Origin: Candidatus Limivicinus sp.
GTDB lineage: Bacteria; Bacillota; Clostridia; Oscillospirales; Oscillospiraceae
Length of the DNA: 64,000 bases
Assembly: GCA_045586065.1 (NCBI GenBank)
Contig: JAZMZR010000019.1
Location: 26,337-90,336 of the forward strand
Reading direction: 5' to 3'
Position numbers and translations under genes: made by a program. Each line of letters opens with the position of its first letter. Positions within the stretch are counted from its first letter, which is position 1. The notes below the pieces were generated by a model. The model was given only the letters and a program-made list of their open reading frames with translations, had not been told where the DNA came from and made no database searches. Below are positions 52,612 to 59,765 of the stretch, piece after piece.

Positions 52612-52745
52612 TCCTCCTTCGGATTCTTCTGACCAAACTAATGTTTGATTATATCACAGAACACCGTTTCTGTACAGTTTCATTCTCGTTGATTTGTTAT
52701 CGCGGATATGGTAGAATCATCGACGAAAAAGTGAGGTTTCAGGCT

Positions 52746-53417
52746 ATGTTCAACGGTTTTTCAAAAGAAACGGGCGAATTCATGTGGGAGCTCGCGTTCA
52801 ACAACGAGCGTCCCTGGTTCAACGCCCACAAGCAGGAATTCGAGACTTATCTGAACAGACCCTTCCGGGCGCTGGCGGCGGACACCTACGCGCTATTGAG
52901 CGAGCGGTTCCCCAAGCTCGACTTCCGGGTGCACGTCTCGCGGATCTACCGTGACGCGAGAAGGCTGTTCGGCAGGGGGCCCTACAAAGAGGCTCTCTGG
53001 TTCACCATCAGCCTGGACCGGTTCTCCTCCGACCCGGATAACGAGGGGCCGGCCTTCTGGTTCGAGATCAAGGCCTCCTCCTATGCCTACGGCATGGGCT
53101 ACTGGGGCTATCCGGGACAGATGGAATGCTTCCGGAAGACCGTTGACGCCAACCCCGCAGCCTTTGAGCGGCTGGCGGAGCAGATGGCCGCCCTGCCGGG
53201 ACTTCGGCTCGAGGGCGAGGATTACAAGCGGCCGAAGGCCGAGCGGACCGGACGGACCGCGGAATGGTACAACAAAAAGCATTTCTCGCTTACCCGGCAC
53301 GGCGATTTCGGCGGAGACCTGTTCTCGCCGGAGCTGCCGGAGATCCTGGCAGAGGCCTACGGCTCCATGATGCCCATGTTCCTGTTTTTATCCAATATCA
53401 GTTCCCGCGAGCCCTGA
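52746..53417 (+). CDS. DUF2461 (TIGR02453) family protein
   Basis: 223 aa from ATG 52746 with N-terminal MFNGFSKETGEFMWELAFNNERPWFNAHKQEFE. Confidence 0.8.
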   Translation: MFNGFSKETGEFMWELAFNNERPWFNAHKQEFETYLNRPFRALAADTYALLSERFPKLDFRVHVSRIYRDARRLFGRGPYKEALWFTISLDRFSSDPDNEGPAFWFEIKASSYAYGMGYWGYPGQMECFRKTVDANPAAFERLAEQMAALPGLRLEGEDYKRPKAERTGRTAEWYNKKHFSLTRHGDFGGDLFSPELPEILAEAYGSMMPMFLFLSNISSREP

Positions 53418-54648
53418 CTCCGGGACCGGCAGCACCGTCCGTGCTGCCTTTTTTTACGGTCTCTTTCACGATCCGGTCCATATCGTCCAGATGGAGCATC
53501 ATGTCCAGGAACAGCGAGAGCTGTTCCTTTGCTTTTTTCAGGTTCTGCCCCGGATACTCTATACGGAAGAACCGGTCGCCGGTCAGGTAGTCCTCGAGGT
53601 AGCGGGCAGCCAGCTCCAGGGTGATCACCGCGGCACCGGCGGAAAGCGAATCCAGCTCCTCTCCGGTGAGCACGCCGTCCAGTTCGGAAAGGAAGCCTTC
53701 GGCAAAGGCCCGGAAAAGTTCCAAATCCAGTTTCTTGCAGCCGGGCCGGGCTTCATCCGCCCTGCAGGCGGCAAAGCGGACCGCGTCGCCGAAATCGCAG
53801 CAGACGAGGCCGGGCATGCAGTTATCCAGATCGATGACCACGAGCGGCTCATGGGTGAGCCTGTCAAAAAGGACATTGTTCGTTTTCGTATCGTTATGGA
53901 CGACGCGCAGGGGCAGCTCTCCCGCCGCACGCTTCCGGCACAGGGTCCCGGCAAAGGAGCGGTATTTCCTTATGAGCTCCGTCTCCTCCTCCGCTTCCGC
54001 CGCCCTGCCGAGCGGATCGCGCTCCGCAGCGGCAAAGAGGGAATCGAGGCAGACTTCCGTATCATGGAAATGCGGGATGGTCTCCGCAAGAAGGGAGGGA
54101 TCGAGATCCGTCAGCTGCCTGTCGAAGCTTCCGAAGGCTCTGCCCGCCATGCGGAGGACCTCCGCATCCCCTTCCATGGATTCAAAGGAGACCGAATCCA
54201 CGATGAAATCCGCCAGCCGCCAGAACTCCCAGCCCGCTTCCCAGGGCTCCTCCCCGAGCGCCGCAGTCCTCTGCTCCTCGGGCAGCTCCTCCAGATCGGT
54301 AAAGCCTTCTTCCGTTTCCCGGAGAATCAGGTAGTTCCGCCCGGAACCCGTCCGGTAATACCTCAGGTTCCTGCGCTTATCCGGGGCTCCCTGCTTCTCC
54401 AGAACATGGCCTGTGATCCGCTCGATATTCCGCATCAGAGACACGGGGTCCCGGTACACGTACCAGTTGACCTTCTGGACCAGATACTGCCGGACTTCCC
54501 TTCCGTCATACAGCGCGGCATACCAGGCCGAGTTGATATGCCCGGTGGAGATCCATCGGGAGATCACCAGCTCGCCGGGAAGTGCGAACTTCCCGCATAT
54601 ATATGAAAGCTTTTCCTCTGTTTTTTCCGGTTTCATTCTTTTTCTCAC
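53398..54648 (-). CDS. Aminoglycoside-phosphotransferase-fold kinase, N-acetylhexosamine-1-kinase-like
   Basis: 416 aa with catalytic loop VVHNDTKTNNVLFD and VVIDLDNCMPG. The 3' end overlaps the convergent DUF2461 gene by 20 nt. Confidence 0.7.
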   Translation of the reverse strand: MRKRMKPEKTEEKLSYICGKFALPGELVISRWISTGHINSAWYAALYDGREVRQYLVQKVNWYVYRDPVSLMRNIERITGHVLEKQGAPDKRRNLRYYRTGSGRNYLILRETEEGFTDLEELPEEQRTAALGEEPWEAGWEFWRLADFIVDSVSFESMEGDAEVLRMAGRAFGSFDRQLTDLDPSLLAETIPHFHDTEVCLDSLFAAAERDPLGRAAEAEEETELIRKYRSFAGTLCRKRAAGELPLRVVHNDTKTNNVLFDRLTHEPLVVIDLDNCMPGLVCCDFGDAVRFAACRADEARPGCKKLDLELFRAFAEGFLSELDGVLTGEELDSLSAGAAVITLELAARYLEDYLTGDRFFRIEYPGQNLKKAKEQLSLFLDMMLHLDDMDRIVKETVKKGSTDGAAGPGVRARGN

Positions 54649-54727: not shown

Positions 54728-55045
54728 TCAGCGCATCCAGATACGGTCGCTTTTGAGGAAGGTCTTCCTCTTCTCCAGCGGATCGATGAGAAGGTGCACC
54801 GGCTTCGGCGGGATCACGGGACGGATCGGGCGGGACATGCAGGCATACCTCCATTCATCGGCCACGTGGTCCTCCAAGTCGGAATCCATGTCCTCGGGGC
54901 AGTGCTCATCGTAGATCATGAGGGGGACGGTGCGGATGAAGGCCTCGCAGTTGGCGAAGACATACATGCCGGGAAATCCGTTGTCATCGAACTGCAGTCT
55001 GTAATGGCACTGCATCCAGCCCGGAATGCGCGCATTATCGCCCCG
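54728..55045 (-). pseudogene. 3' remnant of a phage terminase large-subunit gene
   Basis: RIPGW ... GMYVFANCEAFIRTVPLMIYDEHCPEDMDSDLEDHVADEWRYACMSRP is the TerL C-terminal nuclease pattern. Only about 100 codons remain. Protein-like sequence stops at the repeat at 55043. Confidence 0.6.
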
Positions 55046-55072
55046 TAAAAGGAAAAAGAACCGCCTCTTTCG
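55043..55072. repeat. Direct repeat copy 1 (30 nt), part of a minus-strand terminator module
   Basis: ccgtaaaaggaaaaagaaccgcctctttcg is identical to 56511-56541 apart from a 1-nt indel. On the minus strand it reads as a hairpin plus TTTTTCCTTTT. Confidence 0.9.
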
Positions 55073-55142
55073 GGGCGGCTCTTTAATTTCTTTTGCAGTT
55101 TTCCTTTTTATCTGCCTGTTTCCTTCAAAAAACCCTACTTGC

Positions 55143-56393
55143 TTAATCCTTCTCAAGCAGCCAGTTCGCCAAGTCGTGTATCTTGATTCCTTCGAAGTCA
55201 TAGGTCTCATGCCGGGTGTTCGCCAGAATCAGCTTTGGATACGCATCCTTGATCTTCAGCAGCGGATCATATTCCCGCTCAAAAGTCTCCTGGCGAGTAA
55301 TATCGTCACTGACCTGGATATATACTTTCTCGTTCCCCCGGATTGCTACAAAATCCACTTCTTTCTGATAAAGCTTTCCGACATAAACTTCATATCCCCG
55401 CCGCATCAGTTCAATGCAAACGATATTCTCATACATCCTGCCATAGTCAAGATTTCTTCTGCCGAGTCTTGCAAACCGGAATCCTGTATCACTCAGATAA
55501 TACTTGACGGAGGTTTTCAGATACTTTTTGCCGCGGATATCGTATCTGCGGACACCGTAAAAGACAAATGCATCACATAAGTACTTTATATAATTGCCAA
55601 CGGTCTTATGGTTCGTAACCACCACGTTTGCCGTCAGTGTATCGCTGATGTTGTTAGGGGAGGTCAGGCTTGAAACATTGTCCATCATAAAATCCGCCAG
55701 ATGCTCCAGGGTCGTGGTGTCCGGAAGGTTATACTTTGTGACCAGATCACGGTTGATGATCGTGTCGTAAACATCTCGAATATAGTTTGTACGGTCTCTA
55801 TCTGTGCGGTATTCATAGGAGCCGGCCAAGCCTCCCTTTATCACATACTCATCGAAAAGCTTTGCGGTGTCCTTCTCATCCGCAAAGTAACGGCAGAATT
55901 CTGCGAAGCTGAACGGGAAAACATGAAGCTCTATATATCTTCCTGTGAACAGCGTCGCAAGATCTGAACTCAGAAGGAAGGCATTTGAACCGGTAATATA
56001 AAGATCATATTTCCGGGAAGTGTGCAGACTGTTAATGGCAAGCTCAAACTTTTTGCAGAGCTGCACCTCATCCACAAATACATAGTTCTGCTTTCCCTTG
56101 GCATAACGGCCTTCAATATAGTCATACAGCGCATGGTATTCCTTAAGGGATTCGTATTTCAGATCGAAGAAATCCACGAATATGATATTGGCGTCCGGCT
56201 GTATTTCAGTGATTTTGCTGATAAACGCCTTCATCAGTTCAGACTTTCCGCTGCGCCTTACTCCTGTGATAATCTTGATGTCCGGGGTCCCCATAAGATC
56301 AAAGAGCCTTTGCAAATATTCCGGTCTTTCGATATAGTTCACAAACTCACTTCCGAAACTGAAAATTTTTTTAATTTTCGCACCTGCATTCAT
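55143..56393 (-). CDS. AAA+ ATPase with C-terminal DUF4143 (restriction-endonuclease-like) domain, COG1373 type
   Basis: 416 aa with Walker A GVRRSGKS and Walker B VFVDEVQ. The C-terminus reads ELMRRGYEVYVGK ... EVDFVAI ... YIQVS. Low GC. Confidence 0.85.
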   Translation of the reverse strand: MNAGAKIKKIFSFGSEFVNYIERPEYLQRLFDLMGTPDIKIITGVRRSGKSELMKAFISKITEIQPDANIIFVDFFDLKYESLKEYHALYDYIEGRYAKGKQNYVFVDEVQLCKKFELAINSLHTSRKYDLYITGSNAFLLSSDLATLFTGRYIELHVFPFSFAEFCRYFADEKDTAKLFDEYVIKGGLAGSYEYRTDRDRTNYIRDVYDTIINRDLVTKYNLPDTTTLEHLADFMMDNVSSLTSPNNISDTLTANVVVTNHKTVGNYIKYLCDAFVFYGVRRYDIRGKKYLKTSVKYYLSDTGFRFARLGRRNLDYGRMYENIVCIELMRRGYEVYVGKLYQKEVDFVAIRGNEKVYIQVSDDITRQETFEREYDPLLKIKDAYPKLILANTRHETYDFEGIKIHDLANWLLEKD

Positions 56394-56460
56394 AATCTAC
56401 TCGAAAACGCTCTGTTTGTCAACGGGGATATTCTGCCCTGCAACTCGTATCATTAGAAAA

Positions 56461-56501
56461 GAACAGAATCAGACCCGCTCCGCTGGGCTCTGATTCTGTT
56501 C
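56461..56501 (-). terminator. Strong hairpin upstream of the ATPase gene
   Basis: The 13-bp perfect stem gaacagaatcaga / tctgattctgttc extends with a bulge and is followed by TTTTC on the minus strand. Confidence 0.5.
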
Positions 56502-56510
56502 TGAGAAATA

Positions 56511-56541
56511 CCGTAAAAGGAAAAAGGAACCGCCTCTTTCG
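56511..56541. repeat. Direct repeat copy 2 (31 nt)
   Basis: ccgtaaaaggaaaaaggaaccgcctctttcg. Looser similarity to copy 1 continues for about 15 more nt. Confidence 0.9.
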
Positions 56542-56604
56542 AGACGGTTCGTTTCCCGTTATCTGATCGATACGGAATACCGGTATTATTCGGTGCGGCG
56601 TGTC

Positions 56605-56658
56605 AGCATCTCATTCGCAGAAAAGGTAGAATTCTACCTTTTTTGCGAATGAGATGCT
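56605..56658. repeat. 54-nt palindrome (27-bp arms, one G/T mismatch) centred on gaattc
   Basis: agcatctcattcgcagaaaaggtagaa | ttctaccttttttgcgaatgagatgct. I checked the reverse complement by hand. Confidence 0.9.
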
Positions 56659-56837
56659 TTTAATGGCCTGATTGCAACCGATCCTGCGATTGAAACGTGC
56701 CTTAAAGGGATATTTCAGGCAGGCAGACAGGCAATACTATAGATGCCGAAGATAACAGGAAGCTTTTCTTCAAATGAAATTAGCAGCAAATTTTTCGTTA
56801 TATGATAATTCTCATTGCATATACCGAAAAAATACTG

Positions 56838-56866
56838 TTGTTTTTTTCAGTATGGCATGATAAAAT
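56838..56866 (+). promoter_or_regulatory. Possible promoter of the Fic gene
   Basis: TTGTTT, 17 nt, TAAAAT, about 58 nt upstream of ATG 56924. Confidence 0.35.
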
Positions 56867-56923
56867 GTCAACACGCTGAAAAAAGAGTGTGATTCTTTCA
56901 CGGTTGTATGGGGAGTGATAAGT

Positions 56924-58165
56924 ATGACGTATGAATCTTTAGATAAACTATACTATAAAAACGAGGAAGTATATAAGCAAACTTATAATGAACGTTTTAT
57001 CTCCGAAGATACAGTTAAAATAGACTTCTTCCTCAGTAACCGTCCGGCATTCTTCGTTCAGTGCAGAGATGTCTATTCAACGATGTATGATATACTGAAA
57101 CTGGAAAAGGACATCGTCGTTCTTTCCGAAAAGCTTCCCGTAATAGCGCTGCAGCAGTACTCAAGGAAATGCCTGATCGATGAGATCGTGCTGTCAAACA
57201 ATATCGAAGGTGTGCACAGCACCCGTAAAGAGATCGGGGAAGTACTGGCCAGACTGGAGGAACAGACAAATACACGGGGCGGACACAAGAGATTTGTCGG
57301 GCTTGTCAACAAGTATTCCAAGCTTATCAGCGGAGAGAGCATACCATTGGACACCAGTCAGGATGTCCGGAATATCTATGACGAAATCGTGCTTGATGAA
57401 GTAATCTCGGAAGATAAAAACAATGCCCCGGACGGGAAGATCTTCCGGAAAGAACAGACTACGATCCTGAGCGCGGCAGGCAAAGTCGTTCACGTCGGAA
57501 TGACTCCCGAGTCAAAAATAATAGAATCAATGGAAAAAGCTTTAGCTTTTCTAAATGATGAAAGCATTGAGCCTCTGTACAGGATATCGCTGTTTCACTA
57601 TCTGTTTGAGTATATCCATCCTTTCTATGATGGAAACGGAAGGACAGGAAGGTTCATTCTGAGTTATTGCATATCAAAGCTAATGGCTCCGCTACTTGCT
57701 TACCGCATCTCGGAAACGATCCGCGAGAACCTTAAGGAATACTATAAAGCATTTGAGACATGCAATAATCCGCATAACCTCGGAGATCTTACCCCGTTTC
57801 TGATCATGATGCTGGACATGATCAGAAAGTCCGCTTCAGAATTACAGGAATCATTGAGCAACAGACTTTACAGCTGGAACTATTACCGTGAAATAATCGG
57901 CCGGAAGATCGGCTATAAATCAGACACTCACAATGCTTTTTACAGTATCCTGATCCAGGCTGCGCTCTTCAGCGAACAGGGCATCACGATGAAAGAGCTG
58001 GAAGAAAACATCAAGGCAAGCTCTGTAACGATAAAGAATAATTACCTTGCTGATGCCCGGGCCAATGGTTTGCTGATTGAGACAAAAGCCGGCAGGAGAA
58101 AGTATTATTATATCGACACAAAAAAACTTGATGACCTTGCTGCTCCAAAAGCGGAAATCAACTGA
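56924..58165 (+). CDS. Fic-family protein (class II, N-terminal inhibitory helix) with C-terminal wHTH-like region
   Basis: 413 aa from ATG 56924, with GGGGAG 8 nt upstream. Fic motif HPFYDGNGRTGR (57617-57652). Inhibitory motif SNNIEG fits [ST]xxxE[GN] (57194-57211). Confidence 0.9.
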   Translation: MTYESLDKLYYKNEEVYKQTYNERFISEDTVKIDFFLSNRPAFFVQCRDVYSTMYDILKLEKDIVVLSEKLPVIALQQYSRKCLIDEIVLSNNIEGVHSTRKEIGEVLARLEEQTNTRGGHKRFVGLVNKYSKLISGESIPLDTSQDVRNIYDEIVLDEVISEDKNNAPDGKIFRKEQTTILSAAGKVVHVGMTPESKIIESMEKALAFLNDESIEPLYRISLFHYLFEYIHPFYDGNGRTGRFILSYCISKLMAPLLAYRISETIRENLKEYYKAFETCNNPHNLGDLTPFLIMMLDMIRKSASELQESLSNRLYSWNYYREIIGRKIGYKSDTHNAFYSILIQAALFSEQGITMKELEENIKASSVTIKNNYLADARANGLLIETKAGRRKYYYIDTKKLDDLAAPKAEIN

Positions 58166-58177
58166 ACAGATCTCCTC

Positions 58178-58199
58178 AGCCCCGGCAGGGGGCTTTTTT
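58178..58199 (+). terminator. Intrinsic terminator after the Fic gene
   Basis: The stem agcccc / ggggct has loop ggca and is followed by T6. Confidence 0.65.
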
Positions 58200-58280
58200 A
58201 TTCCTCCTCCATGCGGGCACCGGCTACGCAGCAGATGCTTTATCTGCAAGTATGGAGTTAAGAAGGCCTGGGACAGAAAT

Positions 58281-58326: not shown

Positions 58327-59649
58327 TTATCCGGCGAGGTACAGTGTGCCGGAGGCGGAGAGCAGCTCGATGCTGTCCTCAAGGATGATCTGGTGATAGG
58401 CGCTCTTTACGGCAGACAGACGGCTTCCGGTGCCGAAGGGGACGGAAAAGAATCCGTCTTCGTCCAGGGAGCCGAAACAGGTCTCGTCGAGTCTGTCCCG
58501 GATCTCCTCCGGGCCGTTCAGCGTATATCCGGCGCCTTCCAGATCCACGGTGATGGCATTGCTACCGACAAAGTACAGCACCATCTCATAGCACAGGCCG
58601 ACCGTCACGCCGCAGTCGTCCTTCCGGTCCTCCGCCAGGGAGAAGCCCGGTTTGAGGCAGAAGCCGGAGCTGCCGAAAACATCGAGAGTCCTGCCTGCAT
58701 CGTCCTTCCGGACAAAGGTCCCCTCCTCCGGGAAGGCGATAAACTCGAAATAATCAAAGAAGTTGTCCGCCGTGATCTTCACTTCCATATAAGCAGCGGA
58801 CTCCGCCGGAGGCAGCATCTCCTCTATCAGGGCTCGCGCCGTGTCGTAGCGACCGGAGGCAAAGGCGAGGATGATGTCCTCAAAGGGCGCAAACTCCTCC
58901 GGAAGCTCGGGAAGCTCCTCCGGAAGCGGAGCCTCCGGAGCGGCCTCCGTGCGCAGGAACAGCCTGCCGGAGGCGGAGAGCAGCTCGACGGAGGCGGAGT
59001 CGACGATCTGGACGTAATAGTTTTTCTTGACGGTAAGATAGTCCCCGATCTCAAAACTCAGGTAACAGGAATCATGGGTCAGTGCGGAGACGCAGTCTTC
59101 CTCGTGCTCATCGGTCCAGCTTTCCGCTCCCAGGATCTCATAGGAGCAATTATCCAGATCCACGCGGACGGACCCGCCGCTTGCGGGATAGAAGCGCACG
59201 CCGTAGCGCACGGAAGCCTCGACGCTGCAACCGGCCTTTTTCTCTTCGGCCAGCTCATACTCCGGCTTGAGATAAAACCCCGAAAATCCGTATACACCGA
59301 CCAGGCTACCGGAGACATCGAAATCCGAGCGGTGCGGTCTTTCCGGGAACTCCGCAAACTCGAAATAATCCAGGAAGTTCTCCCCGGTGATCTCCACCTC
59401 TTCGAAAGCGGGCGGCATCTCGGGGATCCATTTCTCCAGTTCGGCGAGGGCGGTCCCGTAGTCGCCTTCCGCCAGGGCATCGGCAAGGTCCCGGAACTGA
59501 GCGAATTCCTCCGGGAGCTCCGAAGGATCCGCAGGCATCCCCTCCGGCAGGCCCGAGGGAACCGGCATATCCGCAGACGGGATCTCTCCGCAGGCGCAGA
59601 GGGCGAACAGAGAGGCAAGGACAAGCATAAGGGCAAGGATCTTTTTCAT
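58327..59649 (-). CDS. Lipoprotein built from two tandem copies of an uncharacterised domain of about 200 aa
   Basis: 440 aa from ATG 59649 with lipobox LCACG. Both halves share PEELPEEFA.F, ENF(L/F)DYFEF..FPE, GF(Y/C)LKP and a terminal ELLSASG.L(F/Y)L. Confidence 0.8.
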   Translation of the reverse strand: MKKILALMLVLASLFALCACGEIPSADMPVPSGLPEGMPADPSELPEEFAQFRDLADALAEGDYGTALAELEKWIPEMPPAFEEVEITGENFLDYFEFAEFPERPHRSDFDVSGSLVGVYGFSGFYLKPEYELAEEKKAGCSVEASVRYGVRFYPASGGSVRVDLDNCSYEILGAESWTDEHEEDCVSALTHDSCYLSFEIGDYLTVKKNYYVQIVDSASVELLSASGRLFLRTEAAPEAPLPEELPELPEEFAPFEDIILAFASGRYDTARALIEEMLPPAESAAYMEVKITADNFFDYFEFIAFPEEGTFVRKDDAGRTLDVFGSSGFCLKPGFSLAEDRKDDCGVTVGLCYEMVLYFVGSNAITVDLEGAGYTLNGPEEIRDRLDETCFGSLDEDGFFSVPFGTGSRLSAVKSAYHQIILEDSIELLSASGTLYLAG

Positions 59650-59765
59650 GGCATGTGCTCCTTTCATGTGCCTTTCGGGAAAAGTATAGCATTGCGGCGG
59701 CCGCAGGGCAACAGAAAAGGGCCGGCCCGGATTCCAAGAGGCCAACCCGCTGCTTTATTCTGTTT

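Follow-up and report, generated by a model that had tools for sequence, protein, structure and literature searches.

Does a short stretch of unusual base composition that carries an ATPase gene and a Fic gene hold one defence system, or two genes that came to lie side by side? We addressed this question for positions 55043-58250 of the window, by which we mean the whole 64,000-nucleotide stretch of Candidatus Limivicinus sp. DNA analysed (G000:C19:26337-90336; the assembly is 1.99 Mb in 25 contigs, 87.7% complete, 52.0% GC). The stretch contains a gene for a P-loop ATPase with AAA_14 and DUF4143 domains and, on the opposite strand, a gene for a class II Fic protein; next to it lies the stub of a phage large terminase (TerL) gene. 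Our analysis indicates that this is probably a small accessory patch in a variable chromosomal spot beside the TerL stub of a dead prophage, and that its two genes are unrelated, self-contained foreign modules of a single gene each that were acquired separately. An earlier description made from the DNA letters (hereafter the sequence-only reading) had proposed a horizontally acquired, partly decayed element whose two surviving genes might make up a defence or addiction module. We find a real locus, foreign and intact, yet ordinary: two common single-gene defence candidates stand side by side.

A low-GC patch of foreign genes beside a terminase relic

The sharp fall in GC content that had drawn attention to this locus was evident in sampled lines, tile statistics and codon usage alike. 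The three 60-nt lines sampled in the sequence-only reading have GC contents of 68.3% (54001), 35.0% (55561) and 36.7% (57541). Positions 55041-58250 average 43.7% GC, compared with 54.1% (standard deviation 2.5) for tiles of the window and 54.6% (standard deviation 3.1) for tiles of contig C19. Taken as a 3.2-kb tile, they have the lowest GC content in the window and in the 193-kb contig as a whole, and they rank within the lowest 4.5% of tiles in the whole genome. At third codon positions, the two island genes have a GC content (GC3) of 51-55%, compared with 74-80% for the genes on either side. The fall does lie between two high-GC genes, one for an APH-family kinase (53398-54648) and one for a lipoprotein (58327-59745, minus strand), each with 59.8% GC. 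The low-GC stretch ends on the right near 58250, shortly past the Fic terminator. The island had originally been drawn from 54728 to 58199. Its low-GC part stood, but the TerL relic did not belong to it: because the relic has a host-like GC content and lies outside the low-GC stretch, the compositional island begins at 55043, not at 54728.

The relic sits in an open reading frame (ORF) at 54728-55210 on the minus strand, of which only the final ~104 codons are homologous to TerL. They match residues 391-483 of 485-aa TerL proteins with 60-76% amino acid identity, in agreement with the description of about 100 codons of a TerL C terminus with no N-terminal part. The matching TerL proteins in relatives from the same genus are full length (474-620 aa), and their genes are followed by portal genes and lie within prophages. 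PHROGs gave a weak match of the relic to the terminase large subunit (E 0.003). Contig C4 of the same genome encodes a full TerL that is unrelated to the relic. The homology ends at 55042-55043, exactly where the left copy of a direct repeat (discussed below) starts. As marks of a prophage remnant, we thus found packaging-gene homology, in the TerL C terminus only, but no integrase, attachment (att) site or other phage gene, and no repeat connects the two outer edges of the patch. Searches for tyrosine and serine recombinases (PF00589 and PF00239) gave no match anywhere on the contig, and no tRNA gene was found in the window, as the sequence-only reading had noted.

The affinities of the two proteins point away from the host. 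The ATPase has thousands of matching proteins; the best 120 are 81-90% identical to it, except for one at 66%, and those named among them come from metagenome-assembled genomes labelled Eubacterium, Pyramidobacter, Solobacterium, Oscillospiraceae and others, labels that belong to several phyla. Within its own family, by contrast, the best match among 150 species genomes reaches 59% identity, and a match at E 1e-40 is present in only 41 out of 151 genomes. Taken together with the GC and GC3 contrast and the truncated TerL gene, these affinities agree with horizontal acquisition followed by partial decay. At the DNA level, likeness to the three closest ATPase loci is limited to the coding sequence (77-80% nucleotide identity), and these loci lie in three unrelated contexts. 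A recent transfer of the gene on a common element was ruled out because the similarity stops at the coding sequence. By these comparisons, the ATPase gene is foreign here, through a transfer that is not recent. The closest relatives of the Fic protein are at most 60% identical. With the best ATPase relatives at 83-90% identity and labelled as several phyla, and a best Fic relative at 60%, the two genes appear to have separate histories. Exact-sequence look-ups of the APH-family kinase, Fic and ATPase products returned no match.

The genes for TrkA/TrkH and DUF2461 (window 52641-54648) are syntenic in relatives from the same genus, and protein synteny showed that all genes downstream of DUF2461 vary between species (L017 and L019 for both observations). 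Because everything past DUF2461 differs between species, we regard this chromosomal spot as variable. A DNA search of 40 relatives yielded only fragments of ~70% identity, which is about the DNA identity of relatives from the same genus, and the APH-family kinase, a flanking gene of housekeeping type, has no relative of more than 62% identity in a collection of 5.8 billion proteins; the available data therefore contain no close relative of this species. The features of the locus are listed in Table 1.

Table 1. Features of the ATPase-Fic patch and its left border (window positions), and repeat-bracketed units at other loci
Feature	Position	Strand	Basis or remarks
TerL relic	54728-55042	-	C-terminal ~104 codons of a phage TerL gene; 58.5% GC, host-like
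Direct-repeat copy A, ATPase intrinsic terminator	55043-55084	-	Stem at 55055-55084 with a minus-strand T-run
AAA_14-DUF4143 P-loop ATPase, 399 aa	55143-56342	-	Pfam; PADLOC candidate PDC-S01
ATPase promoter-like site, TTGACA-17-TAGATT	56394-56422	-	10/12 matches
Hairpin with 17-nt arms, terminator-like, upstream of the ATPase promoter	56460-56502	-	Sequence
Direct-repeat copy B, second copy of the ATPase terminator	56511-56553	-	Sequence; terminates no visible gene
54-nt palindrome, 27-nt arms, one mismatch	56605-56658		Terminator-like on the plus strand
Fic promoter-like site	56826-56866	+	Sequence; TTGTTT (56838-56843), 17 nt, TG-n-TAAAAT (56858-56866)
Class II Fic protein, 413 aa, C-terminal winged helix-turn-helix	56924-58165	+	Pfam, PADLOC, structure model
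Fic intrinsic terminator	58178-58194	+	Sequence
Other bracketed ATPase or Fic units	L103 9430-10750; L139 2151-4061; L154 2298-3930; L031, L041, L048 and L056 (Fic)		

The two genes do not form a conserved pair

The proposal that the ATPase and Fic genes act as one module failed the check that the sequence-only reading itself had named, whether the two genes co-occur elsewhere. Across related loci, neither gene order nor orientation is conserved. Among 80 Fic-clade loci (1.28 Mb), only one includes a DUF4143 ATPase gene within 10 kb, and this gene lies ~6 kb away rather than adjacent. Conversely, a Fic gene occurs within ~10 kb in 1 out of 23 ATPase loci, and it belongs to another Fic subfamily. 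None of the three closest ATPase relatives (0/3) has a Fic gene within ~10 kb; each stands alone in a context of its own. Nor does the Fic clade have any other conserved neighbour: among 182 neighbour ORFs at 52 loci, no cluster spanned more than two loci.

By contrast, Pfam hits to Fic and DUF4143 within 10 kb of each other were found at 10 loci (12 pairs) in the 150 family genomes, whereas ~2.05 pairs would be expected from per-genome counts and sizes if placement were random and kinship were ignored. In three of the pairs (G078:C6, G071:C61 and G160:C9) the genes are adjacent, and in the genome under study a second Fic-fold gene lies 4.7 kb from a second DUF4143 ATPase gene. These observations would favour a two-gene defence or addiction module, with the ATPase as sensor or antidote and the Fic protein as effector or toxin. 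However, two of the adjacent pairs are tandem and one is convergent, while the pair in the window is divergent, and the Fic and ATPase subfamilies are not constant between cases. In addition, the closest relatives of the two proteins differ in identity (90% for the ATPase and 60% for the Fic protein), class II Fic proteins have a built-in inhibitor, and two residents of defence islands would co-localise anyway. Because the two genes are divergent, lie 530 nt apart, have separate promoter-like sites and are separated by three terminator-like hairpins, they are not co-transcribed. We consider such a module unlikely and take the co-localisation of Fic and DUF4143 genes to mean that both reside in defence islands rather than that they form a system.

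The ATPase has intact ATP-binding motifs and an altered nuclease motif

The assignment of this protein as an AAA+ ATPase with a DUF4143-like tail was confirmed by Pfam matches to AAA_14 (E 5e-32, 110.9 bits, cut-off 27) and DUF4143 (E 2e-17, 63.9 bits, cut-off 28.1). The PADLOC model PDLC04787 (PDC-S01) matched it with an E value of 2e-149 over 19-415. The protein has the Walker A motif GVRRSGKS and the Walker B motif VDEVQ, and residues G44, R46, R47, G49, K50, S51, D108, E109 and Q111 fall in invariant columns of the family. Translation most likely starts at GTG 56342. An upstream ATG at 56393 would give a protein of 416 aa; the GTG is the likelier start because relatives are mostly 399 aa long and the promoter-like site reaches to within one base of the upstream ATG. 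Compared with relatives that are 87-88% identical in protein, nonsynonymous divergence (dN) was 0.07 and synonymous divergence (dS) was saturated, values that place the protein under very strong purifying constraint.

DUF4143 is a member of the PD-(D/E)xK superfamily (PMC3424549), and descriptions of PDC-S01 give it as the fusion of an ATPase with a domain of this superfamily (PMC12988326). The ATPase in the window resembles PDC-S01 in its full-length match to PDLC04787, in this domain fusion, in being a single gene and in having a patchy distribution with several diverged copies per genome. It differs from canonical PDC-S01 in its nuclease motif. In a diverse alignment, canonical DUF4143 members keep E-x-D...E-x-K, and both paralogues in the same genome read EID...EIKK. 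In the window protein the first half is kept as EVD, while the ExK position reads QVS, and the whole clade has Q-x-(S/A/T/C) there. As this change is conserved throughout the clade, it does not represent decay. The clade is large (window residues ~345-365; loci L014-L016 and L101-L127) and is still subject to very strong purifying selection (dN 0.07, saturated dS). A PDB sequence search found no relative of the ATPase. The structure model of the protein was too weak for these residues to be placed in it, with a predicted local distance difference test (pLDDT) score of 56 and a shallow alignment (27 sequences at at least 80% identity). We propose that an ATP-driven oligomer of the ATPase would read foreign nucleic acid through a tail that combines a winged helix with a restriction-endonuclease fold. 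Since D...ExK has become D...QxS in this clade, binding or sensing would be a likelier activity of the tail than ordinary cleavage.

The Fic protein is a distant relative of SoFic

The Fic gene is divergently transcribed and encodes a class II enzyme, as had been recognised from the letters. It contains the Fic motif HPFYDGNGRTGR, which fits HxFx(D/E)GNGRxxR and falls in invariant columns of 37 relatives, and an inhibitory SNNIEG motif ~140 residues N-terminal of it, in which I94, E95 and G96 are invariant in the clade. The class II assignment follows from the position of the inhibitory motif, which precedes the core on the same polypeptide. The most likely start is ATG 56924, preceded by the ribosome-binding site GGGGAG. 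The Pfam match to Fic had an E value of 9e-16 (59 bits, cut-off 24), and the PADLOC SoFic model PDLC03963 matched with an E value of 7e-38 over model positions 53-352 of 361. The AlphaFold model of the protein (pLDDT 87, pTM 0.86) ends in a winged helix. The best Foldseek matches of this model were the SoFic structures 3eqx, 3zcn and 3zec, with TM scores of 0.62-0.69 over ~373 columns at 20% identity. Sequence matches in the PDB were 4rgl and 3eqx, and the phmmer alignment to 3eqx reaches residue 395.

The protein is thus like SoFic (Shewanella oneidensis SO_4266, also MloA; PDB 3eqx and 3zcn) in its canonical Fic motif, N-terminal class II inhibitory helix, C-terminal winged helix-turn-helix, whole-chain fold and match to the PADLOC SoFic model. 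It is unlike SoFic in its low sequence identity and in ~40 additional N-terminal residues that form a beta-hairpin in the model. Against the NCBIfam SoFic equivalog NF046030 it scored 70.4 bits, compared with a cut-off of 550. Sequence comparison therefore places it in a distant clade with a SoFic build and not among SoFic orthologues.

Fic relatives occur on temperate phages and satellites. The protein is 43% identical over its full length to orf29 of Faecalibacterium phage Aster, cargo of a temperate element in related hosts, and Fic/MloA genes of Streptococcus satellite prophages are also carried by temperate elements. Such phage-borne relatives fit the presence of a TerL relic next to the island. 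Unlike the window locus, which has no integrase, att site or other phage gene, the Aster fic gene adjoins an integrase gene in an intact prophage.

AMPylation of EF-Tu by SoFic is reversible, and SoFic also binds the promoter of its own gene; the authors of that work interpret it as a dual regulator (bioRxiv 10.64898/2026.07.09.737422). Escherichia coli Sofic, which acts in abortive infection, is toxic and is countered by a small protein, AS1, encoded downstream (PMC12249575). In the window, only 161 nt separate the Fic gene from the convergent gene downstream, and an AS1-like antitoxin gene was excluded there for lack of room. By analogy with SoFic, the internal SNNIEG helix would hold the Fic enzyme in an auto-inhibited state. 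On phage infection, the enzyme might then AMPylate a core host protein (EF-Tu in the case of SoFic), which would stop translation and bring about abortive infection.

Each gene has its own promoter-like and terminator sites

The spacer between the two genes (56394-56923) is 530 nt long and contains three terminator-like hairpins, in keeping with the earlier description of a ~520-bp non-coding stretch packed with hairpins. No credible small ORF was found in the spacer. An Rfam search with E values up to 1 gave only two matches, both at chance level, and none to the 54-nt palindrome. A hairpin similar to the one upstream of the ATPase promoter, also followed by a T-run, occurs at G000:C9:120617-120653. 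Divergent genes need no terminators between them. The hairpins of the spacer may be insulators or leftovers of earlier gene ends.

The -35 element of the Fic promoter-like site is flanked by an inverted repeat, GAAAAAA-N9-TTTTTTC (56826-56848), and SoFic, as noted above, binds its own promoter. We read the 150 nt upstream of the Fic-clade genes (L021-L100) for similar palindromes. The same layout, an A-run arm, a -35-like TTG and a T-run arm, recurs upstream of the clade. Perfect arms of at least 10 nt were present at 23 out of 50 loci, and 20 of these 23 exceeded all of 100 shuffles. The repeat consists of a variable outer arm followed by AAAA, a spacer of 6-8 nt that often contains TTGA, and TTTT followed by the other outer arm; the outer arms differ between loci and are palindromic within each. 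The window carries a weak version with 7-nt arms. A palindrome embedded in the promoter fits self-repression, as reported for SoFic: by analogy, a dimer of the winged helix-turn-helix would bind the A-run/-35/T-run inverted repeat and repress the promoter of its own gene.

The intact state of both genes also bears on whether the stretch is decaying prophage junk in which neither gene functions. The TerL gene has been reduced to 104 codons, no integrase gene or att site is left, and an orphan terminator copy and hairpins remain, all of which such decay could explain. However, both ORFs are full length, the ATPase and Fic proteins retain all invariant family columns, both genes have kept promoter-like and terminator sites, and dN of the ATPase lies far below dS. 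We consider it very improbable that the stretch is junk.

Both genes are defence candidates

The PADLOC scan proposed in the sequence-only reading assigned the ATPase to PDC-S01 (2e-149) and the Fic protein to SoFic (7e-38). The suspicion that both are defence genes thus gained ground, whereas the statement that nothing at the locus matched a named system had to be given up. Both PDC-S01 and SoFic rank among the most frequent calls, in gut and rumen genomes as well as in prokaryotes overall (PMC13356809, PMC12988326). PDC-S01 is the fourth commonest "defence" call in prokaryotes and is still an unvalidated candidate (PMC12988326; 10.1101/2024.01.29.577857). According to papers that cite Millman et al. 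(2022), SoFic is a single-gene defence system of that study, and SoFic-type genes protect E. coli against phage (PMC12249575).

Several points weigh against our reading of two separately acquired single-gene defence candidates. The PDC-S01 family rests on a prediction by guilt-by-embedding and has candidate status (10.1101/2024.01.29.577857). The conservation of the ATPase (dN 0.07, saturated dS) is unusual for a defence gene, and its nuclease triad is non-canonical, with QxS where canonical members have ExK. The Fic protein is ~20% identical to SoFic and scores below the NCBIfam equivalog cut-off. In Streptococcus thermophilus, protection by SoFic-like genes was minimal (PMC11514479). Within the family, Fic and DUF4143 genes lie near each other about six times as often as under random placement, and three pairs are adjacent. 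Finally, no empty site was recovered from the ~70% identical DNA fragments that the 40 relatives yielded.

Some of these points would equally suit genes that are not anti-phage at all. The Fic protein with its winged helix-turn-helix could be an autoregulated regulator of translation or transcription for stress or dormancy control, as proposed for SoFic and CccR, and the ATPase could serve mobile DNA as a conserved accessory protein, outside immunity. The dual regulation ascribed to SoFic, the candidate status of PDC-S01, the very strong purifying selection on the ATPase, which is atypical of arms-race genes, and the little protection seen in S. thermophilus would all fit this explanation, as would the listing of COG1373 ATPases among genes shared by horizontal gene transfer in the gut microbiota (PMC10782964). 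Against it stand the protection of E. coli by SoFic-type genes, as reported in papers citing Millman et al. (2022), and the patchy distribution of both families, which are low in GC and borne by prophages or satellites. In addition, all three DUF4143 ATPase genes of the genome adjoin other defence candidates, the other two also lying in low-GC patches. We regard a purely non-immune role of the two genes as possible and a role in defence as considerably likelier.

The second DUF4143 ATPase gene (PDC-S01, PDLC04790, with the canonical EID...EIKK) lies in a patch with 39-41% GC at G000:C12:31293-38276, together with the second Fic-fold gene (PADLOC PDC-S04, E 4e-72) and genes matching PDC-M11B and PDC-M11A. 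A tyrosine recombinase gene is located ~8 kb from this patch, at C12:46714. The third ATPase gene lies in G000:C13:116000-141600, which at 36-41% GC is among the lowest-GC regions of the genome and has two serine recombinase genes at its upstream end. This region also holds two ORFs of ~1000 aa, an AbiH-like gene, an IS transposase-like gene, and methylase and specificity genes like those of type I restriction-modification systems.

The locus adds little, being a further case of two single-gene defence candidates that are among the commonest in gut anaerobes. It does offer a compact test piece: within ~1.5 kb, either gene is accompanied by a promoter and a terminator of its own and could be cloned and tested alone or together with the other. 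The promoter palindrome of the Fic clade, the QxS clade of DUF4143 proteins and the repeat brackets around single defence-type genes described below may deserve a systematic look.

A direct repeat brackets the ATPase gene

A 43-nt direct repeat (55043-55084 and 56511-56553) brackets the ATPase gene. Its two copies are identical at 38 out of 42 positions, with a local score of 64 compared with a shuffle maximum of 30, and they are the only two good copies in the genome, so a dispersed genomic element was rejected as their source. An integron cassette was also rejected: the repeat is a 30-nt GC stem followed by a T-run and has no GTTRRRY attC core, and the contig has no tyrosine recombinase gene.

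The bracket test was also significant at locus L103, where a 47-nt repeat is present in only two copies in that genome, and at 2 out of 61 metagenome loci (repeats of 74 and 147 nt). In a control set of 435 genes encoding 300-520 aa, six genes passed the test, four of which were the Fic genes. Direct-repeat brackets were thus found around 4 out of 84 ATPase genes and 4 out of 50 Fic genes, compared with 2 out of 385 control genes of similar size from the neighbourhood (Fisher p 0.011 and 0.002, respectively). The bracketed units are 1.27-1.87 kb long, with repeats of 28-147 nt that often span a terminator or a Fic operator.

Such brackets suggest insertion of a single-gene cassette with a long target duplication. 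The ATPase gene was probably inserted together with its promoter and terminator, as a ~1.47-kb unit bracketed by the 43-nt duplicated terminator hairpin. Tentatively, DUF4143 ATPase genes and SoFic-like Fic genes might in general travel as autonomous single-gene cassettes that duplicate 30-150 nt of target, often a terminator hairpin, and the 43-nt repeat that ends at the TerL breakpoint might be the footprint of one such event; we consider this general explanation doubtful. Such a duplication could arise if a small circle entered by a Campbell-type event or if the target were cut with a very long stagger. For L103, loss of a tandem copy is an alternative source of the repeat.

A history that would accommodate these observations starts with a prophage between the APH-family kinase and lipoprotein genes, which may have decayed to the TerL stub. 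The Fic gene may be surviving cargo of that prophage, and the ATPase unit would have entered later, at the terminator beside the stub.

To the right of the patch, the lipoprotein had no family match in Pfam, PADLOC or NCBIfam. Its gene contains a 34-nt direct repeat (window 58337-58370 and 58955-58988, 91% identical), which points to an internal duplication of the protein.

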